Assembly: GCF_003945235.1 (NCBI RefSeq)
Contig: NZ_RSDW01000001.1
Location: 4,260,001 to 4,292,000, forward strand
From: Edaphobacter aggregans
GTDB lineage: Bacteria > Acidobacteriota > Terriglobia > Terriglobales > Acidobacteriaceae
Direction: 5' to 3'
Length of the DNA: 32,000 bases
The notes under the pieces are model-generated. The model did not search any database. It was not told where the DNA came from and worked only from the letters and a program-made list of their open reading frames with translations. The translations under genes were made by a program, and so were the position numbers. Positions 2,575-19,513 of this stretch are shown in pieces; positions within the stretch are counted from its first letter, which is position 1, and each line of letters opens with the position of its first letter.

Positions 2575-2691
2575 TTCGCGCCTCGAAGGCGGAATCTGAC
2601 GAGGGACTTTGTTGTTGAATTGATCGGATTCGCATCACATTCATTATCAACGACTTACGGATGATGTATTGGCCTGCGATAAACGCTGTTT

Positions 2692-2918
2692 GGCGGGAAT
2701 TTGGCCATATGCGTAAATTCGCTGCGGAGATTCAGCCTTATGGGGGTGCGCCACTTCGGCCTTATGGGGTTTGAGAACCTGCAAGTCATTGAAACAAGAG
2801 CGGGGCAAGTTCAACCTTATGTGCAAACCCACACCCCTGTGGGTTTACGAATAAGGTTGAAGTTGGACCCCATAAGGTTGAAGTCAACACCCCATAAGGC
2901 GAAAGTTCTTATGGGGTG
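2692..2918. repeat. Iteron-like cluster A: four direct copies of TTCArCCTTATG(G/t)G(G/c) plus three inverted copies and one further direct copy
   Basis: Direct cores CC(T/A)TATG start at 2705, 2736, 2760 and 2815. Inverted copies are aataaggttgaa 2850-2862, ccccataaggttgaa 2868-2882 and ccccataaggcgaaa 2890-2904. A further direct copy gttcttatgggg lies at 2905-2916. The perfectly conserved block aagtcattgaaacaa is at 2783-2797. Collinear with 17667..17806. Confidence 0.85.
2825..2846. other. Perfect 9-bp stem / 4-nt loop hairpin directly after iteron 4 (copy A)
   Basis: aaacccaca cccc tgtgggttt; the two arms are exact reverse complements. Confidence 0.7.
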
Positions 2919-3028
2919 TGCGTTTGTCATAACACTATCTTTGGAAATCCTGCCGGGTCCTATCGTTTGGACGATGCAGTAGGCTATCGCGTGGCACGCA
3001 ATGCGTCGCCTTAGATGGACACTTATGC

Positions 3029-3319
3029 TTGTCCCTCGCTGAGAAAACCATCGACGATATGCTGACAGAACTTGGAATCAAGCATCAGAAGGAATCCCCT
3101 TATCCTGAAGGCCGATTCCGATGTGATTTTCTCGTTGGATCAACCTATATTGAATATTTCGGTTTGCGAGGAAACCCAGAATACGATGTCCGCATACAAG
3201 AAAAGCTGGATCTTTGCCAACGGCTTGGTTTGAGCCTGCTTGTCATCTATCCGGAGGACCTTGTTGATAGTGCCGTCCTCCGACATAGACTGCTAGGGAT
3301 TCAGGGAGGGGCCAATTAG
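3029..3319 (+). CDS. small stand-alone restriction-endonuclease-like (PD-(D/E)xK / Vsr-DUF559-like) protein
   Basis: 96-aa ORF. RFRCDFLVGSTYIEYFGL....K..L.....G..LLVIYPEDL resembles the D-x(n)-(I/V)E-x-x-G core of endonuclease-fold domains. TTG start with no clear SD (alternative ATG at 3059). The function call is tentative. Confidence 0.45.
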   Translation: MSLAEKTIDDMLTELGIKHQKESPYPEGRFRCDFLVGSTYIEYFGLRGNPEYDVRIQEKLDLCQRLGLSLLVIYPEDLVDSAVLRHRLLGIQGGAN

Positions 3320-3339
3320 CACTCCTCAATTTCATTCAC

Positions 3340-3519
3340 TCAACTAGACGTGAGGAAGACCGCGGTCGTCCTTAAATTCAGAAAGCGATCTTCCATAATT
3401 TCCGTCATGAACCGCAGGAGCATCCGTTCTATCCATTGAACCCAGCCTTTTAAGGAACTGGTGTCGCGAAATGGTGGCGTCCACGTCTCAGCAGACTCCC
3501 GAAGAACTCTCGATGCCAT
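3340..3519 (-). CDS. 59-aa hypothetical protein, below the track cutoff, possible last gene of the lipase cluster
   Basis: Hand translation gives MASRVLRESAETWTPPFRDTSSLKGWVQWIERMLLRFMTEIMEDRFLNLRTTAVFLTSS*. GGAGGA (rc of 3524-3529) lies 4 nt upstream of the ATG at 3519. The ORF starts 37 nt downstream of the 489-aa gene stop. An imperfect palindrome at 3353-3372 overlaps its 3' end. Confidence 0.4.
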   Translation of the reverse strand: MASRVLRESAETWTPPFRDTSSLKGWVQWIERMLLRFMTEIMEDRFLNLRTTAVFLTSS

Positions 3520-3556
3520 ACAGTCCTCCGTTGATTTGGCGATGTCTTGGCAGTGC

Positions 3557-5026
3557 TTAGTTACTTTTTGGAGGAAAGTAAACCGAGATTACGGCGCCTC
3601 TCGGCTTGAATGGCCATATGCGCGGCTTATAGGGCGTTTCGAATCGAAGTTCGATGTCGGTCCCTGGCACTCTCTTTCGCTGATTGTCGAGGACCATCTC
3701 TACTTGAGTGGTAACTCCACAACCATCTGTCTGAATCCCCGCTTTCTTCAGGGTAACCGAGGTAATCTCGAGTGCGAGTTGACAGTCGTTGCCTCCTTGC
3801 GTCGCGACGACCGTGTCCCGTCTCTTGGTGTATAGAGACTTGTCGAGGCGAAAGGGCTTCGGCTGAGAATCTAAATAGCCGCTGTAGCTCTTCATGTAGT
3901 CGGCATAACTCTTTGAGGTGCTGTTACGCGATAGTGCTACTGCCTGATTCAAAGAGATAACCGGAATCGCTGGTCCTTTTGGGTCCGCTGGATTGGGGAT
4001 GCTGCCAGGAACAGGCCCAAACGATTGGGCGATGCTGTCAACGCTTGCTTGGATTGTTGGAATAAGACGCGGTGGAATGTCCTGGCTGACTCCCTTGGGC
4101 GCAGGTGCGCCAGGCGAAGGAAGCGGTTGAGCGAGCCCATTGGCGATCTGATGAAGATACTGTTCGATCATGCCAGGCTGGCCCCACTTTACGCTGTTCG
4201 TCAGAACGGTGTAGTTCTTTTGTAGAGTTTGCAACGAGACGGATTGGTCCACTATAGTCTGGTTGATCGAGCTGATCTGTTTGGATTGTTGTTGAAATTG
4301 CACATTTAGGGTGGCGGAATCGGTTCTCAAGTCACCGAGTTGATCTCCCTGTCCGGTCACCTGTACGTCTAGGCGGCCTAAATCGGCTCCGAATACGTTC
4401 TGCACTTGGATCTGATGCGCGATGTTGTTGAGCGCGGCAGTAACTTTGTCATTGTTAGCAGGCGACTCCTCCATAGACCCCCCACCAGACACGGAGGGCA
4501 GCAAATGGACCGTAGCTCCGCCCACAAGTAGCGCGGCGAGGATAGAAGCGAGCAGCGTAGCATTACTGTGCTTTCCGCCAGCCGAAATCAAAGCATCCCG
4601 AATTTTGCCCAGGATAGCTGCAATTCTGCCTGCCTGCGAGGATCGAACTCGCATTGGTGGGATGCGCAATTCGTTGAGCGCCTCCTTCAAGATTAAGCCG
4701 AACCGTGGGTCATCGACGGCTTGTGCCCAGACCACGCGACCCGCCACGTATGGCGCAAGTGAGTCTGAATAGCCGGGGCATGAATCCTGAATCGCCTTTG
4801 TGATCTTTGCCTTGCCCATTGGCGTCTTGTACAAGTCGTCGTAGATGCTTACGAGCAACGGGTTTGAGGCGATGGTGTCCATCAGATCGTCGTCCGGTAT
4901 ACGGTCACTGGTCAATTTCTCACTGACCAACGCACGAAAATAGTCGTCCGAGGCGGCCCGGTCGGTCCACGGTCTTACTTCTGATTCCTGGATCTCAGGC
5001 ACGTCTGGCATCAGCGGCTTCCCCAT
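3557..5026 (-). CDS. membrane-anchored coiled-coil / Pro-rich protein (TolA/TonB-like layout), function unknown
   Basis: 489 aa. N-terminal ~150-aa soluble part, one hydrophobic helix (ATLLASILAALLVGGATVHLL), a Q/N/L-rich heptad-like region, a Pro-rich stretch (PLPSPGAPAPKG...PVPGSIPNPADPKGPAIPV) and a C-terminal ~130-aa domain. It overlaps the lipase stop (4995-4997) by 32 nt, or by 17 nt if the ATG at 5011 is used, which is preceded by GGGGAA. Confidence 0.7.
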   Translation of the reverse strand: MGKPLMPDVPEIQESEVRPWTDRAASDDYFRALVSEKLTSDRIPDDDLMDTIASNPLLVSIYDDLYKTPMGKAKITKAIQDSCPGYSDSLAPYVAGRVVWAQAVDDPRFGLILKEALNELRIPPMRVRSSQAGRIAAILGKIRDALISAGGKHSNATLLASILAALLVGGATVHLLPSVSGGGSMEESPANNDKVTAALNNIAHQIQVQNVFGADLGRLDVQVTGQGDQLGDLRTDSATLNVQFQQQSKQISSINQTIVDQSVSLQTLQKNYTVLTNSVKWGQPGMIEQYLHQIANGLAQPLPSPGAPAPKGVSQDIPPRLIPTIQASVDSIAQSFGPVPGSIPNPADPKGPAIPVISLNQAVALSRNSTSKSYADYMKSYSGYLDSQPKPFRLDKSLYTKRRDTVVATQGGNDCQLALEITSVTLKKAGIQTDGCGVTTQVEMVLDNQRKRVPGTDIELRFETPYKPRIWPFKPRGAVISVYFPPKSN

Positions 5027-8000
5027 GAGAGTGGTTCAAGATGATCTCTCGGACATCCTTTCGATTCTGAATCCATTCGGCGGCGGTTCCCTTCCAGCCT
5101 CGTGGCGGAGTTGCAATTGGAATAGGCTGTACTGTACCTGGCTGATCGAGATAGTTCTTTAGGCAGCTCGTTGCCGTTTCGCGACCAAGCAAGCGATAGG
5201 CCTCAAACTGCGATTCATCGAACCATTGGTTGATCGTCGTCTCGTGCGGGAACTGTGCATTATCGCGGTCGAAGCTCTTGACGATAACCGAGCTTGCGCT
5301 TGCGACGGCCGGCTTCAGGTACAAAATGGTTCCCGACGAGCCATCGTTGTACTCGATACTGCCGATCGCGTACGAAGAGCGATTAAACTTCGAGTCGCCG
5401 TAGCTGAGTAGTCCGTCCGTGGGCAACGTAATGTTCGCACCAAAGTTGATTTGACATAGTTCCATGGCGTTGACCAGGTCCTCAAAGCGATAGTGAGGGT
5501 CGCAGTCTGCATCGCATAGAATGATTACTTTGCACTTACGGCGAACCAGCTCAAACAGGCCAAGATTCTCAAAATGGCCGCCATCGGAGAGATAGATGTA
5601 CTCACTCTTATCCGTGGCCTGCGCAAACAGTTCGTCGAGCATCGGCTTGAGTCCTGTCTTAGGACCCTCATCACATCTCGTACTGCGGTTGCGCGGATTG
5701 CCGAGCCACCAACCCAAGCGAACGTTGGCCGCTGTCATCAGTGCTGCAACAGCGGGCGAGGTATGGGCTCCTTCGTTCGGGCTCTGCGCCCCTCCTGAAA
5801 TCGCCATCGCGCTGCCTAGCGTAATGCTGTTCGAACTCTCCTGCGAGTCCGTCAGGGAAAGGGCAGGAGTGCCTTTCGAGGAGCAGAAGTCAGTCTTGAT
5901 CAATCCCGATTTTGCCAAAGGATCGTTCGAATCCAGCTGCTCGTCGGGGGAAGGGTAGCGGATATACCCGCAATAAACAGGCGAGAAAATAAAATTCATT
6001 GCCCGCCGTTTCTGCAAATCCAAGTTCCCGCTCTTGGTCACATTGAGAGTGCAATTGATGATAGGAAATGGTCCGTCAAATTTGTTGGATTCTGCTCGTT
6101 GAAGCGGGTCGACCTTTTCACCCTGATCTTCTTCTTGCTTCGCATCGGCAGTCAGCGATGCCATCGTGATGGTGGGTGCGCCGGTGCCTGCGCTCGCCGC
6201 GAGGTAGCACTCAATCAGGCGAAATCGATACACGTTGTGCAGCGATAGCCGGTTGACGTCGATCATCCGGCCCAACACAACAAGAAGGGCGACGGAGACC
6301 GCCAGAAAGATGTACTCCGGGCGTAGCCATACCTTCAATTGTTGGGGGATATAGCCTTCAACAGTCGCTAACAGCAAGTGGTTCAGGCTTGACAAGAGAA
6401 TTAAGAGTCCTAAGAGGAAGACGTACGGCGCAACGCGCGCCAGGAATCCCATGAACTGGTATTGGTCCCCACTAGGTTTCACCCTAACTATCCATGGTGT
6501 GGGATTGGACTCGGACGGAGCGGGCCCCCCAGTCTTTCCACTGTATGCGCTTAGCACGCCACCCACGGTAGTGAGAATCCAGCCCAAAAGAGCCGTAGCC
6601 CCTGGGAGTTTGTAGCCCCCGCGCAGATTGTATAGGTGCGGACCGACCCGCGCCATGAACTCAGGCCACAACAGTGCGAGCGACGCGACTCCGAGCCAAC
6701 CCAGAGTAAGAATGGCGGTGTCTCCCCATATGCGATTCAGCCACTCCTGTGCAGATGATTGAAAGGGTAAAAGAGCCATGCCTGCTGATGCCATTAACAC
6801 ATATGCCAGAAGCAGCAAAAGCGGAGCGGACGCTGCCGATAACAAGAGACCCGTCTCGAAATGATCGCCCAGGTCAAAGAATCGCGCGAGGAGGAAGGAT
6901 GATGCCCAAAAGCACAGCATGCCGATAATACCTGTACATACGAGCGAGACAATGGGTCTCCACCGATCGCTCGATTGAAGCCTCTTCAGCAGGCCCGGGA
7001 ATGCCCCAACCCGGTACGTAAAAAAGACCACGCATAGAAAAGAGATGAGAAAAAATCCCCACGGAATGGCAGGGTGGTAGCCCGAAACATAGTCAAGGCG
7101 TCGGGCGAGGCCCACTCCAACTACAACCGGCCCGAATAGCAGAACAGCAAAGAAAGTAGTAAAGGCGTGCTTTGCCGCCGCTCGTCGTGAAGCCGTGGCG
7201 TCCTTTGGGTTATAGCCTAACCCTGAGGGGAAAAGCATTATGAATAGTCCCGCTCCAGCGAAGAGTCGGATGCGCCACGCTGTACTAATCCAGTGAGGAT
7301 CCTCAGGAAGTCGCCAACTATAAGACTGAAGGCGACTAGCCTGCTTATCAAGACCATCGGTAAGAGATTTGAGCATCTTCAGGGCCGACCGCGGAAGTGC
7401 CTGAGCATCATCAAGAATCGGTAGGTCAGTGACGATACTCTGCACGACTTCGTTGACAGCTTTCGATTGTCTTTCTTCCGCCGATAGTACCTCTCCACAG
7501 GGTGGAACGTGTGCGGTACCTTCGTGTAGTTGGCCACTGGCAATAGATAGAGGAAACCAGCGGCAAAGATCATTCTTCACGGATTCCAGCGTTGCTACTG
7601 CCTCTGGATTGGGTCTTCCGTTGGAGCCGAGAATCTGCTCGTATCCCTTGCTGATACTGTTTCCGACCTCATTCATTGCGCGTGTTGTCGCTTGGTCCAC
7701 CTTAAGATCCGGAATGCAATCTATATCTGATATCGACTTACAGGCCGCCAGCTCCGCCGAGGTAAGCTTGGCTTTAAGATCGGCAAGAGACGCTTTCACT
7801 ACCCATCCTTCGCCCGGGTAGTAGGGACTCTTGTCTAGAAAGGTTCGCATCTTGTCTTCCAGCACACTGCGGGGCACGTCTGGAGATTGACTCGAACCCG
7901 ATTTCTGTCTTAGCTCAAGCTCGTTTCTCAGAGCCGTCAATGCCGTCTCAACGCTCTGGTCCACATAGAGAGAGGGTTTCGTGCGGAACGCTTCGAGGTG

Positions 8001-8798
8001 ATTGATTTTTTCGAGGAGCAGTTTCTCTTCAGGCGATACTGAATCCGGTTTCATTTGTTTGCTCGATTGTGCGGAGGCCATTGCCGCTTGAAGCTCAAGC
8101 GTCTGTCGGACGACCGCTCCAAACGCATTATCGCGGTCATCATCGAAGGTTCCAGTATGCCCAATACCCTTCAATTCTTCTCCGACATCACGCCGTAGTT
8201 GTAGATTGAGGCTGTTCGCTGCCTTGCGTGCATATTCTCCTGAGGTCATCTTGAAGAGGTCTCGCGCGATATAGGGAGCAACTACCAGGATCAAGGCCAG
8301 GAGGGCGACAAAGAGAAGGTTAGGGAGCAGACGGAGCACATATGCGGCGACTGCCGTCCATACGTCGCTGCTCATCAGACCGCGCTGCGGTGTTAGATAG
8401 CTGCTGTAGCGGCGTAGATGGGTGACGGGAAGCTGATCTCGGTAACGATCTGCTGCATTACCCTGCTTATTCTCGTCGGCCAACGCTTTCGCCACATGGC
8501 CAATTCCATCCTTCCGAATCCATGAAGCAAGCCAAGAATTGATATAACTCCCACCCGATACGGAAGAGATATATCCAATCCGATGTAATAGACCGAAAGA
8601 CGCGAAAGCCTGGAGAACTCCGAGGTTAAAGGTGGCACTACGTATTCCTCCCCCTGAGAAAGCCACGCCAATCGCTCGGTCCGGCGGCGCTTGCGGGTCA
8701 CGCCGTTTACGAACGTTCTCGAACCAGGTTTGCTCTCCAGAGAGCAATATCGACTCGATGGATTTGAGATCCTGCTCCGTACCACCCCGTTCTTCCAT
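4995..8798 (-). CDS. patatin/cPLA2-like phospholipase with a very large membrane-embedded insertion
   Basis: 1267 aa. Motifs: FSGGGIRS (G49-G-G-x-R53), SVSGGS (Ser81 codon 8556-8558) and LSDGGHFENLG (Asp1072 codon 5583-5585). About 10 hydrophobic 20-30-aa segments and a ~320-aa charged helical region lie between them. GGAG lies 9 nt upstream of the ATG at 8798. Confidence 0.88.
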   Translation of the reverse strand: MEERGGTEQDLKSIESILLSGEQTWFENVRKRRDPQAPPDRAIGVAFSGGGIRSATFNLGVLQAFASFGLLHRIGYISSVSGGSYINSWLASWIRKDGIGHVAKALADENKQGNAADRYRDQLPVTHLRRYSSYLTPQRGLMSSDVWTAVAAYVLRLLPNLLFVALLALILVVAPYIARDLFKMTSGEYARKAANSLNLQLRRDVGEELKGIGHTGTFDDDRDNAFGAVVRQTLELQAAMASAQSSKQMKPDSVSPEEKLLLEKINHLEAFRTKPSLYVDQSVETALTALRNELELRQKSGSSQSPDVPRSVLEDKMRTFLDKSPYYPGEGWVVKASLADLKAKLTSAELAACKSISDIDCIPDLKVDQATTRAMNEVGNSISKGYEQILGSNGRPNPEAVATLESVKNDLCRWFPLSIASGQLHEGTAHVPPCGEVLSAEERQSKAVNEVVQSIVTDLPILDDAQALPRSALKMLKSLTDGLDKQASRLQSYSWRLPEDPHWISTAWRIRLFAGAGLFIMLFPSGLGYNPKDATASRRAAAKHAFTTFFAVLLFGPVVVGVGLARRLDYVSGYHPAIPWGFFLISFLCVVFFTYRVGAFPGLLKRLQSSDRWRPIVSLVCTGIIGMLCFWASSFLLARFFDLGDHFETGLLLSAASAPLLLLLAYVLMASAGMALLPFQSSAQEWLNRIWGDTAILTLGWLGVASLALLWPEFMARVGPHLYNLRGGYKLPGATALLGWILTTVGGVLSAYSGKTGGPAPSESNPTPWIVRVKPSGDQYQFMGFLARVAPYVFLLGLLILLSSLNHLLLATVEGYIPQQLKVWLRPEYIFLAVSVALLVVLGRMIDVNRLSLHNVYRFRLIECYLAASAGTGAPTITMASLTADAKQEEDQGEKVDPLQRAESNKFDGPFPIINCTLNVTKSGNLDLQKRRAMNFIFSPVYCGYIRYPSPDEQLDSNDPLAKSGLIKTDFCSSKGTPALSLTDSQESSNSITLGSAMAISGGAQSPNEGAHTSPAVAALMTAANVRLGWWLGNPRNRSTRCDEGPKTGLKPMLDELFAQATDKSEYIYLSDGGHFENLGLFELVRRKCKVIILCDADCDPHYRFEDLVNAMELCQINFGANITLPTDGLLSYGDSKFNRSSYAIGSIEYNDGSSGTILYLKPAVASASSVIVKSFDRDNAQFPHETTINQWFDESQFEAYRLLGRETATSCLKNYLDQPGTVQPIPIATPPRGWKGTAAEWIQNRKDVREIILNHSHGEAADARRA

Positions 8799-9177
8799 AG
8801 TTGATTACTCCGTATATTTCTGCATTCCTATTCGCCGCTGGCAGCTTCAGACATGCCTTATCGTCGTCACTGCCCTCCATGATCTTCTGGCACTTTCCAC
8901 TGCGAGGCGGGTACTCGCCGAAAGGACATAGGGCGTCCGGGGTAGCCCAGTAGGAAGCGCTCATGGAGCTACGCGGGCCCAAATGGGCTATCTTCCCACC
9001 AAGGTAAAGAATCACAGGAAACAACATGCCAATGATGACGACGGTGAAAACGAAGCCGAAAGTATGTTCCTTGGATCTGATCTGAGACTGGACGTGGGAC
9101 GATAGTTCGCCTCCTGGGATAAGAGCGCGGCCCACTTCTGCTGAGTTCCGGAAATGGGAACACCTCTCTTGTGTCAA
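8707..9177 (-). CDS. possible small single-pass membrane protein
   Basis: 156-aa ORF with a TTG start and no clear SD. One hydrophobic helix (FGFVFTVVIIGMLFPVILYLGG). The last 92 nt overlap the well-supported lipase start in another frame, so this call is uncertain. Confidence 0.3.
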   Translation of the reverse strand: MTQERCSHFRNSAEVGRALIPGGELSSHVQSQIRSKEHTFGFVFTVVIIGMLFPVILYLGGKIAHLGPRSSMSASYWATPDALCPFGEYPPRSGKCQKIMEGSDDDKACLKLPAANRNAEIYGVINYGRTGWYGAGSQIHRVDIALWRANLVRERS

Positions 9178-9226
9178 CGTAGCTCGGCGTTCACGGCAAC
9201 ACCGCTAGGCGTCACTCTTCGTTGGG

Positions 9227-10852
9227 CTATTTAGGCGCTAAGATGCTGTTTAGTGCCGACAGGTCATAACTGAAGCCAAACTGCCCTTTCCAGTCACTGT
9301 CGCTAAGCAGATCAGTTTTATTAGACCATTTAACAGCAACGGGGATAGAGGCGCCCTTACCAATGTTGAAGACCAACTTCGTCTGAGCGATACTCAACCA
9401 ACCGGGTGTACTAGTAAAGACCTGTGAGTTGGATGGAACCGAGATGTTAGTTCCGGGCACTACATTTGCTACGGTTATATTGAGGACATTGGCGGTGTAC
9501 TGATACTGTCCATAACCAGCAAGACTAAAAATCGCGCGTGGAGCACTCTTGTCTTTGCCGAAAGGGTGGTCATACTCTCCAGTGAACTGATAATCCTTAA
9601 CTTTGCCGTACTTCGCGCCTGGCGGAATTGTTGCGAACCATGAGCCGGCTACGTTGAACGTAAGCTGGTCGCCGCTCTTCTGCCACACATATGCGAAGAC
9701 GGCGGTCGCATCGTGTGTGGCTGGTTTGCCAGTAGGTGTGGAATAGGTATAGCTAAGCGTCGCGAAAGTGCCACGTGCTTGTTGAAGAATATTATCGCGA
9801 AGGGTTTTCAATTTAGCTAGGTCCGCACCAACCGCTACAATATTCTGCTCATAGTTCGGCCCCGCGTTCGACTTCAATGCTGCGACGTACACCGTCATGT
9901 ATGCAATGAAGTCGTCCACGAACTTGTCAAAATTATTTTCAGCCTCGTCCTGTTCTGCGGCATGCTGCCAGTCAGCACGTGCTGCAACGACTTTCGAATC
10001 ACCATTCACTTTGTCGGAATTTGGAAATGCCTTCTGGTAGTCCGTGTAAAGCTGGTTTGATGCGTTTGTAATTGCGGTTTGGGTATCCTTATCGCCGATT
10101 GCTTTGTTCCAAGCACTAACGAATTTCGTTGAGGTCGGGTTATACCGCCGGTTGATGGTTCTGCTCACACTGAGCGAACTGAACGACACATTATTTGATG
10201 GGATAAGAACACTGAGGATGTCAGTGGGTGTAGTAGAAGTCGCCTGGCCTGTGGTAGATGCAGCAGCCGAGCCGCTCTGGGCAACATTGAACGTGGCGGC
10301 AAGGGTGAAAGGCTGCAGTATTTTATCTGCGGTCTTGGGTCCTTGCGCTGTGGCAGCGAAATTATCACCCGAAAGATAACGGCGCAGACCATTCATGTTT
10401 GCCCTCGCCGTCAGAGTAGTACCGTTAACTGTTTGGGTGAAAGCGCCCGATTCAGCTGCTAGCGATATTAGGTCAGTCGTCGTGGGCTTTGCCCCCAGGC
10501 TGGTCGATCCACTTGCACTCGTGTTCGCTCCGGCTTGGGGAACCGCTGCCTTCGTGGAAATAACTTGTGCTACTTGGTTAGCTGCGGCTTGTAACACAGT
10601 TGCTCCGAAGGCCGCGTCGAAAAGAACACTTACAGTTGGTATTGGCTGGTTAAGAGGGTCCAAGAGGGTAGGTTCTGCGCCGCCCTTCGCAAATCTTTGG
10701 TCTTTAAACTCTTTCTGAAGTATTCCGCAAAATGAGCTGGCGATCTTTCCTTTCTGGTCGCAAGTGCTTTGTGGGGATTGAGCTGATGCCCCAGAACTTT
10801 GCAGAGATACTAATAACGCGAAAGCCAACTGCAGTCTGACGGGTAACTTCAT
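9227..10852 (-). CDS. secreted protein with beta-barrel-like C-terminal region, function unknown
   Basis: From the second Met the N-terminus is MKLPVRLQLAFALLVSLQSSGASA|QSP, a classic signal peptide with an AxA site, and GAGG lies 6 nt upstream of the ATG at 10852. The track start at 10897 is the alternative. The last ~190 aa show alternating hydrophobic strands (AIFSLAGYGQYQY, KLVFNIG, IPVAVKWSN, WKGQFGFSYDL). Confidence 0.7.
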   Translation of the reverse strand: MKLPVRLQLAFALLVSLQSSGASAQSPQSTCDQKGKIASSFCGILQKEFKDQRFAKGGAEPTLLDPLNQPIPTVSVLFDAAFGATVLQAAANQVAQVISTKAAVPQAGANTSASGSTSLGAKPTTTDLISLAAESGAFTQTVNGTTLTARANMNGLRRYLSGDNFAATAQGPKTADKILQPFTLAATFNVAQSGSAAASTTGQATSTTPTDILSVLIPSNNVSFSSLSVSRTINRRYNPTSTKFVSAWNKAIGDKDTQTAITNASNQLYTDYQKAFPNSDKVNGDSKVVAARADWQHAAEQDEAENNFDKFVDDFIAYMTVYVAALKSNAGPNYEQNIVAVGADLAKLKTLRDNILQQARGTFATLSYTYSTPTGKPATHDATAVFAYVWQKSGDQLTFNVAGSWFATIPPGAKYGKVKDYQFTGEYDHPFGKDKSAPRAIFSLAGYGQYQYTANVLNITVANVVPGTNISVPSNSQVFTSTPGWLSIAQTKLVFNIGKGASIPVAVKWSNKTDLLSDSDWKGQFGFSYDLSALNSILAPK

Positions 10853-10920
10853 AAACGACCTCACTGGAATGGGTTTAAGACCGTGGGCTGTGAGCATTTG
10901 AGCGCATGGGGTGGACGCTA

Positions 10921-11277
10921 CTAAGCGCCTAAGATGTTGGGGCTCCAGATAGCCAAACCGCCAAAAAATTCGATATCACCTTCGAGTTCAAGCGGCGGCT
11001 TACCTACCGCACTTGGCGGCTGCTGGGCAGTCGCAAATCCATCCGTAGAGTTAGGCGAAAACAGAGTAATCTGCAGAAGATTGTTGCCAGCCAGGATGGT
11101 CAGATCAAATGTTTTCCCATCAACTTTGATCGGGACTGGGATTGGTCCGTTAGCGTTCGTTCCGTATAGCACGCTGACGATGCTGATGACGGTTGTTGGA
11201 TCATCGGGGACGATTTCGATCGTCTCGACTTTCCCTGTTGTGCTTTGCAGGTCACCTGGGACTTGCTGGAGTGCCAT
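10921..11277 (-). CDS. 118-aa beta-rich hypothetical protein, first gene of the lipase cluster
   Basis: GGAGAAAG lies 6 nt upstream of the ATG at 11277. No signal peptide and no recognised motif. The plus-strand ORF 10934..11293 is its shadow. Confidence 0.55.
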   Translation of the reverse strand: MALQQVPGDLQSTTGKVETIEIVPDDPTTVISIVSVLYGTNANGPIPVPIKVDGKTFDLTILAGNNLLQITLFSPNSTDGFATAQQPPSAVGKPPLELEGDIEFFGGLAIWSPNILGA

Positions 11278-11904
11278 GGCTTTCTCCGATTGAAATTACT
11301 CTGCTTGAAAATAGGGTTGTAAGAATTTGAGACGCAATCCGGAAAAAGGGAGGAGTACTCGGTCTAATATGACGACCTAGTCCGCGTGGGCACATAAGGT
11401 GATCACAATGAGCTTCACGTTTCTCCGTAAATCCGAAGTCCCAAATCAATGGCGATGCATTTGCTGTCTGTCAAACAAGAGAACGAGGCAAACGAGGCAT
11501 TTCCTTTTGTAAAAAAAAAGAAAAAGTGTGGAACATTCCTAGTGTCTGCAAAAACTGTTCGATCACCTTCGGAGTGGGTAGCTACTGTGGTGGGGTCCAG
11601 CCGCCGTGAGTATTTATTGGTTTGCCATCCTCAACGAAAAATCGCTCGGCTACTAAGCCGACGTCCCAATAGTGCGAGCGGCAGTTCCTTCACTTGACAC
11701 CGTTGCAGTGCAAATTACGGTGCTCCTGGTTATCGACAATCCTTCATCTGCTAAGCGAAGGCCGCTTACTTGATACCGGAGAGGTGCGATGGGCCGGAGA
11801 AATCAACCGAGCTTGAGCGCTGGCAAACCTGCGTAAACCAAAAAAATTAGCCACAAATGAGGCCACTCGTCCTACAATGATTTCGTCAACCACTAAGCAA
11901 TCGA

Positions 11905-12552
11905 ATGACCACGAACCCGCTCGCTGCTGCAGAGATCGTCAAAGCATGCTTGGAGTCCGAGAATGAGACGCCGTGGACGACATTCGTTCAGTATTTCCAG
12001 CCTCTGATTGCGTCTAGTGTCTCCCGCGTTCTCCGACGCTACGGTCACGCGAACCCGTCTTTGGCCGATGACCTAATCCAAGAGACCTATCTTCGCCTTT
12101 GCAGAGATAATTGCCGAGTCCTCCGGGACTTTCAGGCGAAGCATGACGAAGCCATCTTTGGCTATATCAAGGTCATCGCCACATCAGTTGCGCTAGATCA
12201 CTTTCGCGCCCGCGCCACTCACAAGCGCCGGGGCGAAGTCGAAGACGACGGCACAAATCTCGAAGGCAGCACAGCTTCTTCCACCATTGAGCAAAGCTTG
12301 CTTCTCAAAGAACTCGATCGACGTCTGGCATCCACTGAGAATGAACGCGACCGTACGATTTTCTGGCTCTACTACCGTCAAGGTTATACCGCACGAGACA
12401 TTGCAGCGGTTCCCCAATTTAGGCTCACGCAAAAGGGTGTCGAAAGCTGTATCTACCGCCTCACACAATCTCTCCGCGATGCTGTCAGCAGTAAAGGTCC
12501 GGGTTTTACAAAAGGATTGCCGCCTCAAAATACGTTAGGAGTCATGAAATGA
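11905..12552 (+). CDS. ECF-type sigma-70 family RNA polymerase sigma factor
   Basis: 215 aa. Region 2-like DDLIQETYLRLCRD and region 4 HTH-like YRQGYTARDIAAV...LTQKGVESCIYRLTQSLR. Stop TGA 12550-12552 overlaps the next ATG (ATGA). Confidence 0.85.
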   Translation: MTTNPLAAAEIVKACLESENETPWTTFVQYFQPLIASSVSRVLRRYGHANPSLADDLIQETYLRLCRDNCRVLRDFQAKHDEAIFGYIKVIATSVALDHFRARATHKRRGEVEDDGTNLEGSTASSTIEQSLLLKELDRRLASTENERDRTIFWLYYRQGYTARDIAAVPQFRLTQKGVESCIYRLTQSLRDAVSSKGPGFTKGLPPQNTLGVMK

Positions 12553-15500
12553 GACCGCTGGAAGATCACCTCAGCCCGCAGGAGCTGGCTAGTCTTCCGG
12601 AATCACCGGAGGCTCTTGTATCTGTCGAGCAACAGGAGTCGACACGACATATCCAGCAGTGCGAAGCGTGCCACAACCTGGCGATGACTTACTGGAAGCT
12701 CCGGAGTCTCCACATAACGACTGGGGTTGTTGTCAGTAGCGACACCTGCCCTATTGAAAGCATTTGGCTCGAGTTAGCTGCGGGCTTTCGCTCTGAGCAA
12801 TCGCTGTCTCTACTGGCCCACGCAGCAAGTTGTAGCGTCTGTTCAACCCTTCTGCGAGAAGCAATGGACCTCATACAGTTTGACCAACTCGACGCATCGG
12901 GCGAAGCAGGGGAACTTATAGAAAATCTCTCCAGTGACAGGCCCGAATGGCAACATCGTATCGCCGAGCAGATGATGGTGGCCTCAGGCGCATCCCCTGC
13001 AGCAAAAGGCATCCGGGCGAAGCCCGCCACCGGCGTTCCAAGACTCAATTTTATTCATCGCCTACGCCATAGATCAGTGTGGATAACTCTGCCTGCAGCC
13101 GCTTTCGTACTCGGCGTTGTCGTCATGACTGGCGTCGCACTTTGGCGCACAATGCGCCCTTCAGAGGCCCGTTTGCTTGCGATCGCCTACAATAAGCAGC
13201 GGACAATGGTCTTGCGCATCCCGGGCGCCGATCCCGTTCCCCTTGCCTCGGGTACCCGTGGCTCCATGACGGGTCTCACCGACCCCACCGAGTTACTCGA
13301 ACTTCGGCTCCGCGCCCAAAAGCACCTCGATCAGACTCCCAACAGTTCCTATTGGCACCAGATCATGGGCGAGACTCAACTCCTCCAACAGGACGGCACT
13401 GCCGCCCGCCGCAGCTTCGAAATTGCCGAGACAACCAGTGAAAATCTTCCCGATCTCCGGCTGGACCTGGCGGCCGCCTGGTTTGAGATCGGAGATAAGA
13501 CTGGATCTGCCGAGGCCTACGCGGAAGCCGCGGAGCTTTATAGCAGGCTGCTTCGAGAAAAGCCCACAGACCCCGCACTCCTCTACTACAACCGCGCCCT
13601 TAGCTGGGAGCGTCAAAATCTAACTGAGAATGCCCTTGATGACCTTCGCGCGGCGCTACCCCTAGAGCGCTCGGCCGCCTGGCGCAAAGTGATCGAAGCG
13701 GAGATCGCCCGTCTTTCCGCGCAATCCTCCACAGTGACTACCGACGGTTACGAGATCTCACTCAACGTGGCCACGGAAAACCTTCTGCCTCATTGGAGCA
13801 ATTCCCCCGAAGCCCGAGCCAAGATCTCACAGACCGCCGCTCTCGGCCTCAGCCACCACGACCGTTGGCTATTCGACTGGATCGCCGCCAACCATTCCCC
13901 TATTAGTTTAGAAGCGGACTATCATCTCGCCGCGGCAGTTGCCTATGGTGAAGCCGGGGAAGCCGAATCATCTCTTACTGAAGCCCGCCGCGCAATTGAA
14001 CTTTACACAAGAGCCAACGAACATCCCGGGCTCCTCCGAGCCCAATTTGCCGAAATCTATGCCTTCCAACGGCTTGGGCGGGCGAAAGAATGCCTTCAAA
14101 GCATCGCAATCGTTAAGCCGAAAGCAGCTCTCAACAACTATGCATGGCTTCAATCGCAACTCTTCGTGGAACTAGGGGACTGTGAGGGACACATAGGCAA
14201 GTTTGAAGCAACTCAAGAGGATCTAGAACGCGCTCTTGCACTCAGTAAAGTCTTCGATCTACCTCTAATACGCTTGCGAGCTCTTAGCGCGGAGGCTTCG
14301 TTTCTTGACCTCCGCGGAATGACAACCTCTGCTTGGAGGCTTGATTCAATTGGACTACTACTATGCAGACAACTCGGATGTCCTCCCCTCCGGAGGTATG
14401 AGTTTATGTACAACATGGTTATGACTGCGGAGCGCCTTGAGTTGCCATTCGTCGCTGGGGATATCATGCGAACTGGAGCCCATCTCGCAGCGTTATTTCA
14501 AGACGCAACTGAGCATGCCTACGCATTGGAAACTCTGGGAACCGTTATTGGACAAGCTGGCGAGTACACGGAATCGACTCAAGCATTCACTCAGGCCCTC
14601 GCTATCGCTCGCGCTGGTAAACAAGGACCGATGTCCCCCCTTTATCAAGCCGACTGGCAAATAGATCGAGCTGAGATTCTCTCGCGCCAAGGAGCCCCCA
14701 AGGCAGCTTTGCGCCTACTCGAGCAAAATGGGCCAATTCTTCTCGCAAGTGATTATCAGCCCGCTCGCCTTCACTACCTGACCCAACTGGCGTCCGTAGA
14801 CCGGTCTCTTGGACACACAAACGAGGCGCTAACCAATAGTTGGATGGCTGTTCGCGAGGCCGAGCACTCTCTGGGCTCACTGCATACGACTACGGAACGT
14901 GAACAGTGGTCTCAGCAAAACAAAAAGGCATATGCCGAACTTGTCCGATGCTATCTCCAACTCGGAGAAGACACTGAAGCACTTCGAGCCTGGGAACGCT
15001 TTCGAAGCGCACCTTATATTTCAACGTCAACGGCAAACCTAATGAGAAGTTCGTCGAAGTCTACTTCGCCGAACACTATGGTGCTTGTTCTGGCTCGCAT
15101 TGATGACTCGTATATTGGCTGGATCGCCGTAGCTCATCCTCTCCGTGTTGTGCGAACAATATCACTCGGTGAGGGACCAAGATTACAGCAAATGGCAACG
15201 ATTTTCATTCGCCTTTGCTCTGATCCTAACTCCAATCTTAATGATGTCAAGGTCGTTGGTTCGCATCTGTATTCTTCTCTCCTCCAGCCATTAGGAATTC
15301 CACTAAACATCCCAAATCATCTTTGGATAGACGTAGATCCGAGTCTGGGAGCGATTCCCTTTTCTGCTCTCCTCCTTCCGAGTGGAGATTGGCTAGGTTC
15401 GTACTCCCAGATTAGCGTCCTACCAGCATGGTGGGTCCTTCATCCTGCAACCTCGTTTGAGGAACCCACTTTCACGTTTAACACGCACATGGTTGTTGCT

Positions 15501-16064
15501 AGCGGATTCGGTGCACATGAGTCTCTACAATCCCCGGTTGGCAGCTCAGAAGCGGCGGAGATCGCTCGGTTCTTCCCAGGAGCAACGCTGATAGACGGAC
15601 CCTCCGCCAACACTCAGGTGGTACTGCAGTCCATGAAGTCTGGCGACATCTTTCACTTTAGTGGTCATGCAACAAGTGAATCTGGTACACAACTTCTCTT
15701 GGGCTCATCAGATGGAGAGCGCCCTAACACTCTTACTGCCGGATCGATCGAATCGATCCACCTGCGCCACTGTAAGGTGGCAGTCCTTGCCGCATGCAAT
15801 ACGAACGCAGCAAATTCCGACCAAATTGAAAACTCCTCTGATCTCCGCAACGCGTTCCTTATCGCCGGAGCAAACTCAGTTGTCGCTAGTAACTGGGATG
15901 TTGACGACAAGAGCACCCATATTTTGATGATGGCCTTTTACAACCAGCTCGTTATCGGAGTTACCCCCGCTCAATCACTTCAAACCGCACAGCAGTCTTT
16001 GCGGAATGGATCAACCTGGCAACATCCCTATTACTGGGCCTCATTCGAGATCTTTACCAACTAA
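12549..16064 (+). CDS. anti-sigma (HxxxCxxC zinc motif) - TM - TPR - CHAT (caspase-like protease) fusion protein
   Basis: 1171 aa. AGGAG at 12537-12541 lies 7 nt upstream. HIQQCEAC (12648-12671) and HAASCSVC (12819-12842) both fit the ZAS HxxxCxxC pattern. TM helix VWITLPAAAFVLGVVVMTGVALW at ~13075-13146. Long helical repeat (TPR-like) region. C-terminal IFHFSGHA (His codon 15666-15668) and VAVLAACNT (Cys codon 15795-15797) match the CHAT His/Cys dyad context. Confidence 0.85.
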   Translation: MRPLEDHLSPQELASLPESPEALVSVEQQESTRHIQQCEACHNLAMTYWKLRSLHITTGVVVSSDTCPIESIWLELAAGFRSEQSLSLLAHAASCSVCSTLLREAMDLIQFDQLDASGEAGELIENLSSDRPEWQHRIAEQMMVASGASPAAKGIRAKPATGVPRLNFIHRLRHRSVWITLPAAAFVLGVVVMTGVALWRTMRPSEARLLAIAYNKQRTMVLRIPGADPVPLASGTRGSMTGLTDPTELLELRLRAQKHLDQTPNSSYWHQIMGETQLLQQDGTAARRSFEIAETTSENLPDLRLDLAAAWFEIGDKTGSAEAYAEAAELYSRLLREKPTDPALLYYNRALSWERQNLTENALDDLRAALPLERSAAWRKVIEAEIARLSAQSSTVTTDGYEISLNVATENLLPHWSNSPEARAKISQTAALGLSHHDRWLFDWIAANHSPISLEADYHLAAAVAYGEAGEAESSLTEARRAIELYTRANEHPGLLRAQFAEIYAFQRLGRAKECLQSIAIVKPKAALNNYAWLQSQLFVELGDCEGHIGKFEATQEDLERALALSKVFDLPLIRLRALSAEASFLDLRGMTTSAWRLDSIGLLLCRQLGCPPLRRYEFMYNMVMTAERLELPFVAGDIMRTGAHLAALFQDATEHAYALETLGTVIGQAGEYTESTQAFTQALAIARAGKQGPMSPLYQADWQIDRAEILSRQGAPKAALRLLEQNGPILLASDYQPARLHYLTQLASVDRSLGHTNEALTNSWMAVREAEHSLGSLHTTTEREQWSQQNKKAYAELVRCYLQLGEDTEALRAWERFRSAPYISTSTANLMRSSSKSTSPNTMVLVLARIDDSYIGWIAVAHPLRVVRTISLGEGPRLQQMATIFIRLCSDPNSNLNDVKVVGSHLYSSLLQPLGIPLNIPNHLWIDVDPSLGAIPFSALLLPSGDWLGSYSQISVLPAWWVLHPATSFEEPTFTFNTHMVVASGFGAHESLQSPVGSSEAAEIARFFPGATLIDGPSANTQVVLQSMKSGDIFHFSGHATSESGTQLLLGSSDGERPNTLTAGSIESIHLRHCKVAVLAACNTNAANSDQIENSSDLRNAFLIAGANSVVASNWDVDDKSTHILMMAFYNQLVIGVTPAQSLQTAQQSLRNGSTWQHPYYWASFEIFTN

Positions 16065-16082
16065 ATCCTATATTGGAGAACA

Positions 16083-17096
16083 ATGCACATGCATTACTCG
16101 CGTCGCTCAATTTTGCGCAAAGCTGCCCTTGTATCAGCCGCCGGTGTAGCCTACACTAATCCGCTTATTCTCCTTGCCCAGAGTCCGGCAAAACGAGCAG
16201 CATCTACTCCCCCTCCTCCGTTTCAACCAGGAATTCGTATTTTCTTTTCGGGGTCTTGGCTCTTCTGTTCAGAGAATAATAACCCGGGCTGGATGAGAGC
16301 GATCGCTCAGGACATGCCGCGAGTTCCACATACCTTTGCCTATGGTGTGTGGACGCCTGGTTGGAATGACGCAACCACAAAGTCACTACACTCGAACTCA
16401 AATCCAAGTGGTGGCCAACCGGGCATCATTCCACATAAGGTCAAGGTGTCCGTGGGCTCCAAGCCTTTCGGGTCAAGCTTTACTACTGTCAATGACCTGT
16501 TTGCTTATACTGCCTGCACAGACCCTTTTACATACCTGCCAAGCAAAGATATAAAGTACTCCGTTGACTTCAACGCACGTAATCTTCGGGTCATCTCTGT
16601 TCCTATTCCATCAAGTATCATTCCGGCTGCCTTCCTCAGATCCGCATCGATTAGGAACCCTCAAAAGCTTCTTTATACGTTGCCTCAAGGGTGCGTGTTG
16701 TCCCAGTCTGGAGTCGCGACAACGCATATCTTTGACTACCCTGCAGCAACTTCCCTGACCCTCACGCTAAACACTGGTACCGCCGACACTGCGAGCCAGC
16801 AGGATCATTATCACTTTCACACAACTGCGATCTCAGACACACCGTTCGACCACGCTCCGATGATGTTCGATAATCTGCTGGGCCTCATTAGAGGCTTCGA
16901 CCAGAACAACCTAGGATTGCTCAACCCCAATCCAGAATCTATTGACATAGGAGACAACGTCCCAGCGAGTGTTTCGGGGGACGAATTGGAGATTACCTCT
17001 GCTGGTGCCTCAGCTACCAAACCCAAGGAAGTTACCTATTCGACTCACGCAAGACTCGCTACCTGCGCGGGGGGAGCCCTCGCGCTGGGCGATTGA
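16083..17096 (+). CDS. Tat-signal exported protein, function unknown
   Basis: 337 aa. The N-terminus MHMHYSRRSILRKAALVSAAGVAY fits the twin-arginine S-R-R-x-(F/I)-L-K pattern. GGAG at 16075-16078. Starts 18 nt after the CHAT gene stop. Confidence 0.7.
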   Translation: MHMHYSRRSILRKAALVSAAGVAYTNPLILLAQSPAKRAASTPPPPFQPGIRIFFSGSWLFCSENNNPGWMRAIAQDMPRVPHTFAYGVWTPGWNDATTKSLHSNSNPSGGQPGIIPHKVKVSVGSKPFGSSFTTVNDLFAYTACTDPFTYLPSKDIKYSVDFNARNLRVISVPIPSSIIPAAFLRSASIRNPQKLLYTLPQGCVLSQSGVATTHIFDYPAATSLTLTLNTGTADTASQQDHYHFHTTAISDTPFDHAPMMFDNLLGLIRGFDQNNLGLLNPNPESIDIGDNVPASVSGDELEITSAGASATKPKEVTYSTHARLATCAGGALALGD

Positions 17097-17142
17097 TGCT
17101 GAGGGCATCGGGCATTGATTCCCTAACGGCGTTCTTCAAAGG

Positions 17143-17266
17143 CGTAGAAAGCGCACTGAGGAGTCGGAGTGCCCGATCGCGAACTCCGATACTGACACGA
17201 ATATCGAGACTAAGCTGTCCCCGATAATTCCAGCCAGCTTTGCCCTTCGAGGATATTTTTTAGTTG
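17143..17266. repeat. Left arm of composite repeat module, copy B (paired with 2066..2188)
   Basis: See 2066..2188: collinear, roughly three quarters identical by eye, with one small indel near gaagg(g)(c)aa(a)gctgg. Confidence 0.8.
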
Positions 17267-17269
17267 TCA

Positions 17270-17710
17270 TCAGATCTTCCGGATCTCCTGTGCTTTTTGT
17301 TCAGACGTTAGCTTAGAGCGGATCTTTGCCGAACTGATCTTGTTCCTCCCGTTCCCTAAACGGTAGAAGTAGTTCGCACGGTTGCAAAGCCTCGCCGCCG
17401 CATCGTACCGAGGGAGAGCAATTGGCAGTCGCTTCCTCATTTGAGACGGTTCTGCGTTACTAATCGTGCTAGTAGCACGGTTCCAGCAAATGTCTGCGTC
17501 TAGCTCCTTCAAAAAGGAAGTCCCAATTTCCTTCAGCTTTAACCGTGGGAGTCGACACCCTTCGTTGGAGAGGTGCTGCCTGCTCCGTCGACTGGAAACG
17601 AGCTTTCGAGAGTCTCCCGAGAACAGGCTTTGTATGTCGTAAGCGCGACGAACTTTGTCTCGGTTTGGCGAAAGTTCAGCCTTATGTGTAAATTCACGGC
17701 GGAACTTCAA
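17270..17710 (-). CDS. doubtful ORF in the variable centre of repeat module B
   Basis: 146-aa ORF. Its first ~15 codons are encoded by the iteron cluster, so any real start would be internal. Basic, low-complexity composition. It ends ...AKIRSKLTSEQKAQEIRKI. No similarity seen to the ORF at the same place in module A. Confidence 0.25.
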   Translation of the reverse strand: MKFRREFTHKAELSPNRDKVRRAYDIQSLFSGDSRKLVSSRRSRQHLSNEGCRLPRLKLKEIGTSFLKELDADICWNRATSTISNAEPSQMRKRLPIALPRYDAAARLCNRANYFYRLGNGRNKISSAKIRSKLTSEQKAQEIRKI

Positions 17711-17806
17711 GCTTATGGGGATGTTCCAGTTCAGCCTTATGGGGTATCAGATGCCGTAAGTCATTGAAACAAATCCGGCTGAAATTCCGCCTTATGCGTA
17801 AACTCA
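17667..17806. repeat. Iteron-like cluster B: four direct copies of TTCArCCTTATG(G/t)G
   Basis: Cores (C/G)CTTATG start at 17680, 17711, 17735 and 17790, the same 31/24/55-nt spacing as cluster A. The identical 15-nt block aagtcattgaaacaa is at 17758-17772, 23 nt after core 3 as in A. Confidence 0.85.
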
Positions 17807-17808
17807 CA

Positions 17809-19187: not shown

Positions 19188-19474
19188 AGGAGCTATTGAG
19201 CCTAAATAGAAAGCTCAAAGCTTCCAATGAGAGCTGCCCTGAACTCATCGTTGTTGACGCAACGACTCAACAATCAGCTAGTAAACGCCGAAGAGATCGG
19301 CCTGCGACATTGGGTTGAGTATAGGGAGCGGTGGCCCACATCTAACGAGCCACAAAATCGGGTGCCCCATCTTCGCGCGGTTTTATCGTGCCAAGGTGGA
19401 TTCATTCGAGCAAAGCTCGAACCGCCTTGCTTAAGGGCACGGCTTCAGCCGTGTCGCAACAGTAACGAGAGATA

Positions 19475-19497: not shown

Positions 19498-19513
19498 GTT
19501 TTACAATCGCCGA

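Follow-up and report, generated by a model that had tools for sequence, protein, structure and literature searches.

What binds to the phased short repeats that stand between two genes in the chromosome of Edaphobacter aggregans? The repeats occupy positions 2692-2918 of a 32,000-nucleotide (nt) stretch of contig NZ_RSDW01000001.1 (positions 4,260,001 to 4,292,000), referred to here as the window, and a second, similar set lies some way downstream; the two are called arrays A and B. The original prediction, made from the letters alone, described iteron-like 15-mers forming a multi-site protein-binding array, such as an operator, recombinase arm sites, replication iterons or a partition site. 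Comparison with other genomes indicates that the 15-mers are very probably binding sites for the transposase TnsB, located subterminally in two Tn7-like transposons that stand in tandem. These elements, X1 and X2, most likely lie head-to-tail in the chromosome. As read from the sequence, X1 would run from outside the window to 2833 and X2 from 2838 to 17808, region A being the place where the left end (LE) of X1 meets the right end (RE) of X2. The arrays would look alike because both are ends of related transposons. A phased multi-site protein-binding array is, accordingly, the part of the original prediction that stands, and iterons, partition site and operator are the part that does not.

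Two arrays with the same phasing

Re-reading the sequence placed the repeat cores where they had been reported, starting at 2705, 2736, 2760 and 2815 in array A and at 17680, 17711, 17735 and 17790 in array B, with spacings of 31/24/55 nt in both. The proposed core, CC(T/A)TATG, fits all of them except the second core of array B, which reads GCTTATG. Also present are a 15-nt block, aagtcattgaaacaa, identical at 2783-2797 and 17758-17772, and, in array A, three inverted copies (2847-2861, 2868-2882, 2890-2904) and a direct copy (2907-2916). With up to three mismatches allowed, TTCARCCTTATGGGG is matched ten times in the 32-kb window, where 1.22 matches are expected (standard deviation 1.06) and none of 100 shuffles reaches ten; all ten matches fall within arrays A and B. 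Over 146 nt (2688-2833 and 17663-17808), the two arrays can be aligned gap-free, with 75% of positions identical. The idea that phasing is conserved while spacers diverge is only moderately true of A versus B, with 65% identity in the spacers, 76% in the sites and 100% in the 15-mer; the case for conserved phasing is stronger across unrelated genomes, in which the spacers differ and the core-to-terminus distances are equal. The inverted copies belong to a separate array, composed of three 18-mers in steps of 21 and 22 nt (family D9 of the repeat search).

Phased repeats located between genes and beside a small divergent open reading frame (ORF, 2215-2574) with a helix-turn-helix (HTH)-like N-terminus, are what one would expect of iterons, of a partition site or of an operator through which that ORF controls the flanking genes. 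In the window, however, neither rep or par genes nor Rep, ParA or ParB domains were found; the location is chromosomal, and in other genomes the homologous arrays stand at insertion boundaries by nrdJ. The ORF, which had been put forward as the binding protein, matches no known family; unrelated sequence occupies its position beside array B, and it is absent beside the LEs of four loci from other genomes (L004, L010, L024 and L064; related loci are numbered with an L) and has no counterpart beside any other LE, so it is not a likely binder. An iteron, partition or operator function is scarcely plausible for these arrays.

Array A probably joins two transposon ends

Region 2692-2918 had been taken for a single array between two genes; it appears instead to be the abutment of two different transposon ends. 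A repeat search revealed a 28-nt inverted repeat (2806-2833 / 2838-2865), with arms 4 nt apart and 86% complementary. Array A terminates in ...AAACCCACA at 2833, followed by cccc and then by TGTGGGTTT from 2838, so that the junction reads ...CCTTATGTGCAAACCCACA cccc TGTGGGTTTACGAATAAGG..., with ...CCCACA on the X1 side and TGTGGG... on the X2 side. Array B terminates in ...ACTCACA at 17808, and in the alignment of A with B similarity is lost immediately past ...CACA, at 2833 and 17808. The 8 bp before the first site are TGTGGGTT at 2826-2833 (reverse complement) and 2838-2845, and read TGTGAGTT at 17801-17808 (reverse complement). Inverted TG(T)...(A)CA termini, about 8 bp before the first site, were found at all three window ends and at 12 or more related ends. 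Each end carries several sites of about 20 bp in the same orientation, arranged asymmetrically, spaced in the LE and abutting in the RE. Ends with TG...CA termini, an inverted terminal repeat and multiple subterminal transposase sites are those of DDE transposons, and array A is therefore read as two abutting ends.

A comparable topology is known from the attachment (att) sites of tyrosine or serine integrases, in which the repeats would serve as arm and core sites, array A being an attP-like P-core-P' between tandem islands and array B an attR. Such sites share with the locus the arrays flanking a short inverted core, the half-sites bordering the islands and a target at the 3' end of a conserved gene; in lambda-type att sites it is classical for sites resembling those of integration host factor (IHF) to lie between arm and core. 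Several features speak against such a reading: the termini are inverted and not direct repeats; A/B identity ends at CACA, leaving no shared overlap region; the junction spacer varies, from 4 nt in the window to ~13 nt in L024; 'core' and 'arm' sites are of one motif; no integrase domain is found in X2 or in 21 kb of the related locus L085; and tnsABC-tniQ genes accompany the same ends. Integrase attachment sites are most improbable here. 'Recombinase arm sites' was nonetheless the closest guess among those offered originally, except that the recombinase would be a DDE transposase, TnsB, rather than an integrase, as judged from the 28-bp inverted repeats, the single site motif and the presence of tnsABC-tniQ in loci L062 and L085.

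Related ends in other genomes

Relatives were collected by a pattern scan covering one genome per species, and by a metagenome scan whose 75 loci were filtered by motif and terminal sequence, leaving more than a dozen true relatives. Every one of them has TGTGGGTTTACGCATAAGGYTGAAGTTG at its terminus, and two types of end can be told apart. The family terminal sequence is TGTGGGTTTACGCATAAGG, and the same 28-bp terminal inverted repeat is present in related loci; each element is predicted to have the form 5'-TGTGGGTTTAC...GTAAACCCACA-3'. A search of the end sequences against 72,556 plasmids gave no match, and a scan of viral contigs gave a single, unrelated one.

In the LE type, CATAAG cores lie ~13/68/92/123 nt from the terminus. 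Seven LEs were examined, the two of the window and those of L004, L010, L024, L064 and L065 (L080 is L010 in reverse complement); all four cores are present in four of the seven (both window LEs, L004 and L010), and one core went undetected in L024, L064 and L065. The X1 LE, with cores 13, 68, 92 and 123 nt from its terminus, resembles the other family members. Granulicella aggregans carries the same four-site array with a spacing of 31/24/56 and the terminus ...CCAACA (L004, NZ_JACHIP010000001.1); this complete LE spans 933-1080 of the locus, 95 nt downstream of a TetR gene, with neither RE nor cargo in view. The adjoining TetR has thousands of close homologues, and a DUF4267-TetR pair occurs without an array in one other acidobacterial locus examined (L083). 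The TetR gene therefore appears chromosomal, and the Granulicella LE looks solo.

The RE type has cores at 13/34/56, followed by an inverted half-site, in all eight unrearranged REs (window, L013, L017, L018, L026, L027, L062 and L078), among which similarity fades ~110-125 nt from the terminus. The first 95 nt of the X2 RE are 87-89% identical to the REs of L078/L085 and L018 (87% to L085). Profiles were built from the seven LEs and from eight REs, the window ends included, and match the X1 LE with an E value of 2e-37, the X2 LE with 1.8e-40 and the X2 RE with 1.6e-26. They locate exactly three ends in the window, at 2833 (-), 2838 (+) and 17808 (-); since these ends were part of the profile input, the result adds only that the window holds no further end.

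Tandem arrangement is found outside the window as well. L024 contains a second LE-RE tandem junction, with ~13 nt between the ends, which is decayed and has its RE cores at 37/59/81. In L070, at 85-160, ...GGTAAACCCACA is joined directly to TTTACGCATAAGG..., which reads as a further rearranged tandem junction, with an LE-type terminus set against an RE that lacks its own TGTGGG. At the L024 junction, a truncated ORF for an IS66-family transposase (305-1291) was also observed just inside the LE of the left-hand element.

Transposition genes in related loci

TnsB-site arrays are an accepted marker of the boundaries of Tn7-like elements, and defence genes are typical cargo of such elements (PMC8649781). 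No transposition gene adjoined any of the ends examined first. Locus L085, obtained by extending the L078 contig via its MzaB-like ATPase, carries in succession nrdJ, the RE, 14.7 kb of cargo and a tnsA-tnsB-tnsC-tniQ operon pointing away from the RE. Its cargo comprises Dcm and Vsr, a set of Z1, DUF4420, AIPR and MzaB-like ATPase genes resembling the MZA defence system, a sigma factor and others. Pfam matches identify Tn7_TnsA-like_N (29.4 bits), rve_3 and Mu-transpos_C in TnsB, TniB (90 bits) and TniQ (67 bits). Compared with TnsB chains of solved structure, the L085 TnsB is closest to that of PseCAST (E value 2.9e-74), followed by Tn6677 (8.9e-66), ShCAST (3.4e-24) and Tn7 (1.3e-14). L062, found by tblastn, displays the canonical compact layout: the nrdJ stop codon at 607, 29 nt, the RE at 637, 2.9 kb, and tnsA-tnsB-tnsC-tniQ from 3514 on the inward strand. 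With a cut-off of E <= 1e-80, 705 members of the TnsB family were counted, among them proteins of Edaphobacter, Terracidiphilus and Acidobacteriaceae.

In the window, by comparison, no tnsA, tnsB, tnsC or tniQ was detected in X2 or in the visible part of X1, either with Pfam or by tblastn with the L085 Tns proteins (best E value 0.2). Since tns genes accompany the same RE in its relatives L062 and L085 and not in X2, the arrays are classed as Tn7-like ends, and X2 is placed in the family as a non-autonomous element; and, because the window is without a tns gene, we infer the identity of the binding protein, TnsB, from these relatives.

Operons of the family often contain two tniQ genes, one of ~640 aa with an HTH domain and one of ~300 aa, and this pairing suggests two targeting pathways. 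Two consecutive TniQ-domain genes were also seen in L089 (13013-15837), in L092 (11481-14353) and in one contig of the Joint Genome Institute, encoding ~630-660 aa (with a faint HTH/MerR-type match) and ~300 aa. L089, an Acidobacteriaceae Tn7-like element, further shows three tandem units of ~162 nt with 65-83% identity at 8610-9044, directly upstream of tnsA and reaching into its start.

The operon composition bears on another possibility, that the ends belong to a TnsA-less replicative element of the Mu or Tn5053/Tn402 (TniABQ) type, and not to a heteromeric cut-and-paste system that uses TnsA together with TnsB. The left end of Mu likewise has L1 spaced from L2 and L3, and its right end has R1-R3 abutting; the TnsA-like_N matches are weak (29.4 bits, with a cut-off of 26.5); and a solo end such as the Granulicella LE is more easily made by replicative, intramolecular events. 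Yet a TnsA-like ORF of ~300 aa stands directly before tnsB in L062, L085, L089 and L092, the nearest TnsB relatives of solved structure come from TnsA-containing type I-F3 CRISPR-associated transposons (CASTs), and no resolvase is found beside tni-type genes. A TnsA-less system is very unlikely.

Insertion downstream of nrdJ

In all six REs with enough flanking sequence (L013, L017, L026, L027, L062 and L078/L085), the terminus is observed 26-30 bp past the stop codon of nrdJ. The orientation is the same throughout, with the RE nearest nrdJ, and the spacer sequences are unrelated. The gene encodes a class II ribonucleotide reductase (Pfam Ribonuc_red_lgC, Ribonuc_red_2_N and TSCPD) whose protein ends in ...GSCYRCxxCGSTSGCS*. 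Insertion is site- and orientation-specific in these six related loci; the window itself contains no nrdJ. From these comparisons, the predicted target of the family is the position 26-30 bp downstream of the nrdJ stop codon, with the RE facing the gene. If the window obeys the family rule, nrdJ would lie to the left of X1, and X1, as the newer element, would have been inserted after the older X2.

Other ribonucleotide reductase genes are att sites of Tn7-like elements, namely nrdB in Acinetobacter and nrdD in Agathobacter, Fusibacillus and archaea (bioRxiv 10.1101/2025.07.27.667033). Those elements and the present family share the use of a ribonucleotide reductase gene as a safe attachment point, and differ in that the gene here is the class II gene nrdJ and the host belongs to the Acidobacteriota. 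A literature search for Tn7 together with nrdJ returned no description of an nrdJ att site.

Several observations weigh against the assignment of the arrays to Tn7-like ends. There is no tns gene in the window or in X2, and no contig that carries tns genes was found to carry an LE array as well; LE and RE are tied together by the terminal repeat and site motif they have in common, by X2 itself and by the L024 junction. The distance from the RE to the tns operon in L085 (14.7 kb), and the absence of any tns gene within 7.4 kb in L026, are unusual for Tn7-like elements. More distant TnsB relatives (L089, L091 and L092) show no CCCCATAAGG arrays within 10 kb. A target-site duplication was sought around X2, and none was found. 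The LE of Granulicella looks like a solo end, or else like the breakpoint of a rearrangement. Finally, classical Tn7 target immunity disfavours tandem elements that share near-identical sites, and an arrangement like that of X1 and X2 is not what it predicts. The TnsB homologues P0247, P0260, P0245 and P0243 are all encoded in tnsABC-tniQ operons, with no CCCCATAAGG arrays within reach.

Element X2

The first ORF of X2 past the RE (3029-3319) encodes 96 aa, corresponding only to the C-terminal PD-(D/E)xK part of a family of ~290 aa; it matches PADLOC PDC-S69 (profile positions 191-271 of 289) and the C-terminal part of HEAT_CxxC_PDDEXK. The 'nuclease-like gene' of the original prediction is this fragment, a truncated gene adjoining the X2 RE. 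Further cargo includes a gene for a 1267-aa protein with an N-terminal patatin-like domain just under the Pfam cut-off (4995-8798), and a gene for an extracytoplasmic function (ECF) sigma factor that overlaps the start of a 1171-aa TPR-CHAT protease-like gene (11905-16064). No PADLOC defence family was matched by the patatin-like, ECF sigma factor or TPR-CHAT cargo.

Some sites carry substitutions: the core of R1 is AATAAG, that of L4 in X1 is CATATG, and one X2 terminus reads TGTGAG (Table 1). The sequences flanking X2, (A)CCCC on the left and AAGGG on the right, do not match; the left flank is the junction with X1, and X2 may be a product of recombination or deletion. X2 is without transposition genes or remnants of them and begins with a truncated gene, and is therefore probably a non-autonomous derivative, formed by deletion or recombination and mobile, if at all, only in trans.

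An autonomous X2 would require one of its unannotated ORFs (489, 556, 337 or 1267 aa) to be a new transposase that binds the sites, and several large X2 ORFs are indeed without a match in Pfam, NCBIfam and PADLOC. These ORFs, however, are not common to X1 or to any other family member; the L085 end that is 87% identical to the X2 RE goes with an ordinary tnsABC-tniQ operon; and the truncation of the first gene suggests an internal deletion. There is next to no chance that X2 encodes its own transposase. A bolder proposal, which seems doubtful, keeps X2 mobile: a 15-kb Tn7-like element with both ends and nothing but cargo between them, it would be transposed by TnsABC-TniQ acting in trans from another element nearby, for example X1. 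In that case the elements with near-identical TnsB sites that stand head-to-tail in the window, L024 and L070 would indicate that the nrdJ-homing acidobacterial family is without effective target immunity and builds multi-element islands of defence and other cargo genes by repeated homing.

The ORFs just inside the two LEs (436 and 337 aa) are unrelated to each other. A second block conserved between X1 and X2 (D2; 2049-2183 and 17125-17260), with ~80% identity and small indels, sits 450-600 bp inside each LE, right behind the last plus-strand ORF. It is absent from every other family locus, gives nothing meaningful in Rfam and has a fold z score of only -0.9 to -1.6; two minus-strand reading frames both appear conserved.

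Putative bending site, palindrome and proposed mechanism

The reverse complement of the 15-mer located between L1 and L2 contains TTTCAATGACTTG (TTTCAATGACTTR), which departs from the IHF consensus WATCARNNNNTTR at a single base, T replacing A at position 2; TTTCAATGACTT is a stretch of the same block (2783-2797). The block is identical in X1 and X2, TTTCAATGACTTA also occurs in L010/L080 (one sequence), and weaker versions are present in L024 and L004. In VchCAST and 20 other type I-F CASTs an IHF site lies between L1 and L2 of the left end, and VchCAST integration drops ~20-fold without IHF (PMC10201428); a complex has been reported by cryogenic electron microscopy (bioRxiv 10.64898/2026.07.09.737429). 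By its sequence and position, the 15-mer is somewhat favoured to be a bending site for IHF or an HU-type protein.

The right end contains a palindrome built from R3 and the inverted half-site, found in five of six aligned REs, the copy in L026 being degenerate. In the window it folds into a 13-bp hairpin (-21.5 kcal/mol, z score -3.8), and its homologues reach z scores of -4.3 to -7.8. A paired change keeps the pairing, ACAC/GTGT in the window versus AGAC/GTCT in L013. In L013 a T-rich tail stands behind the palindrome; the window copy fails a terminator scan. The right end of VchCAST also has a palindrome, which influences orientation (PMC10201428). The palindrome of the present family may serve as an additional or paired site for TnsB, or else form a hairpin that blocks transcription entering from outside, from nrdJ.

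By analogy with Tn7 and the type I-F3 CASTs, TnsB protomers would line up on the 18-20-bp sites. IHF would fold the left end, bringing L1 and L2 together, and the asymmetry of the ends would fix the orientation of insertion. Excision at the TG/CA termini would follow, carried out by TnsA, TnsB and TnsC, and insertion by them would take place where a long TniQ/TnsD-type protein had marked the target downstream of nrdJ. Should the window copies be active at present, X2 would move only with TnsABC and TniQ supplied in trans.

Comparison with known systems

Among the known systems, the type I-F3 CAST VchCAST (Tn6677) is a close parallel in end architecture. Its ends have three sites each and are asymmetric, with an essential terminal TG ~8 bp from the first site and a palindrome in the right end (PMC10201428). 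The present family shares the asymmetric TnsB sites, the TG ~8 bp before the first site, a match to the IHF consensus between L1 and L2, and the RE palindrome, and its TnsB is closest, among solved structures, to those of PseCAST (3e-74) and Tn6677 (9e-66). It differs from CASTs in several respects. The LE has four sites instead of three, and the site sequences differ. The palindrome is built from a TnsB site and lies ~50-80 bp from the terminus, as opposed to 97-107 bp in the CAST. No cas genes or CRISPR array occur in the family loci examined; cas domains are absent from the gene tables of L085, L089 and L092, in which partial elements are visible, and from the window. Targeting seems to be protein-based, via the ~640-aa TniQ with its HTH domain and the second, ~300-aa TniQ.

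Tn7 begins with TGTGGG and homes to a position just past glmS (attTn7, by the TnsABCD pathway), some tens of bp beyond the stop codon of this essential gene and with its RE nearest the gene; related Tn7-like elements pile up in att sites. In common with Tn7, the family has TGT...ACA termini, spaced LE sites, abutting RE sites and an insertion point fixed in site and orientation shortly behind a stop codon. Unlike Tn7, it targets nrdJ and not glmS, its tns operon can lie 3-15 kb from the RE with cargo between, the 5-bp duplication is not demonstrable here, and the TnsB proteins are distant (E value 1e-14).

The ends of phage Mu are TG/CA; in its LE, a gap that a host factor bends separates the L1 site from the inner ones, and its RE has three contiguous sites. 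The TG/CA ends, gapped terminal LE site, contiguous RE trio and Mu-transpos_C domain of the family TnsB all recall Mu. Mu differs in its near-random insertion, as opposed to site-specific insertion here, and in relying on MuB where the family has TnsA, TniB and TniQ; no phage genes are found in the cargo.

The use of TnsB-site arrays, as a class of feature, to delimit Tn7-like elements is already known (PMC8649781). Novelty is confined to four aspects: an att site at nrdJ, a lineage in the Acidobacteriota, the placement of cargo between RE and tns operon, and a tandem array in which one member, of 15 kb, lacks a transposase. The understanding of Tn7-family mechanisms is unchanged by these findings. 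Their value is that the boundaries of mobile elements can be placed, X1 ending at 2833 and X2 spanning 2838-17808, so that the genes between are marked as transposon cargo. They also document, in the Acidobacteriota, a little-studied Tn7-like lineage with type I-F3-CAST-like end architecture, a putative IHF site and two TniQ genes, whose att site is undescribed within the literature and collections searched. The end sequences could be used to delimit islands in soil metagenomes, and the family could be a source of new homing transposases.

Table 1. Predicted transposon features in the window (positions 1 to 32,000; strand as + or -, with. where neither applies).
Feature	Position	Strand	Sequence or remark	Basis
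X1 left end (LE)	2688..2833	-	four TnsB-type sites and IHF-like block; ends ...AAACCCACA; body of X1 beyond the left edge of the window
X1 LE, L4 (innermost)	2698..2715	-	terminal-type TACGCATATGGCCAAATT; core degenerated to CATATG	core geometry
X1 LE, L3	2729..2746	-	CCCCCATAAGGCTGAATC	motif scan, core geometry
X1 LE, L2	2753..2770	-	ACCCCATAAGGCCGAAGT	repeat search, core geometry
X1 LE, conserved 15-mer, IHF-like	2783..2797	-	in the 55-nt gap between L1 and L2; reverse complement TTGTTTCAATGACTT
X1 LE, L1 (terminal site)	2808..2825	-	TGCACATAAGGTTGAACT (read outside to inside); behind 8-bp TGTGGGTT at 2826-2833
Spacer, tandem-insertion junction	2834..2837	.	cccc, 4 nt, from X1 LE terminus to X2 RE terminus
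Element X2	2838..17808	+	14,971 bp; inverted RE and LE at its ends
X2 right end (RE)	2838..2935	+	begins TGTGGGTTTACGAATAAGG; three abutting sites and inner inverted half-site	profile, alignment
X2 RE, R1	2846..2863	+	TACGAATAAGGTTGAAGT; core C changed to A (AATAAG)	repeat family D9
X2 RE, R2	2867..2884	+	ACCCCATAAGGTTGAAGT	repeat family D9
X2 RE, R3	2889..2906	+	ACCCCATAAGGCGAAAGT	repeat family D9
Palindrome, R3 and inverted half-site	2887..2919	.	ACACCCCATAAGG...TCTTATGGGGTGT	RE alignment, folding
X2 left end (LE)	17663..17808	-	terminus ...AAACTCACA at 17808; IHF-like block 17758-17772
X2 LE sites	L1 17783-17800, L2 17728-17745, L3 17704-17721, L4 17673-17690	-		core geometry

Neighbouring features

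Just outside the X2 LE, a unit at 19386-20083 contains an ORF for an IS200-like Y1 transposase (19514-19954; Pfam Y1_Tnp, 1e-07). Around the ORF lie nested inverted repeats (19431-19457/19976-20002 and 19475-19497/19939-19961, the second pair being 100% complementary) and a 54-nt direct repeat (19386/20030). The layout suggests a unit associated with repetitive extragenic palindromes (REP), of the REP-associated tyrosine transposase (RAYT) type, or an IS200-type unit.

Between this unit and the X2 terminus lies the region of lowest GC content in the window (17885-19187; 45%), in which no family was matched. An ATG frame from 17885 stops at ~50 codons within a T run, and a 399-aa ORF with a TTG start occupies another frame (17988-19187). 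The region may contain a frameshifted gene or a sequencing error.

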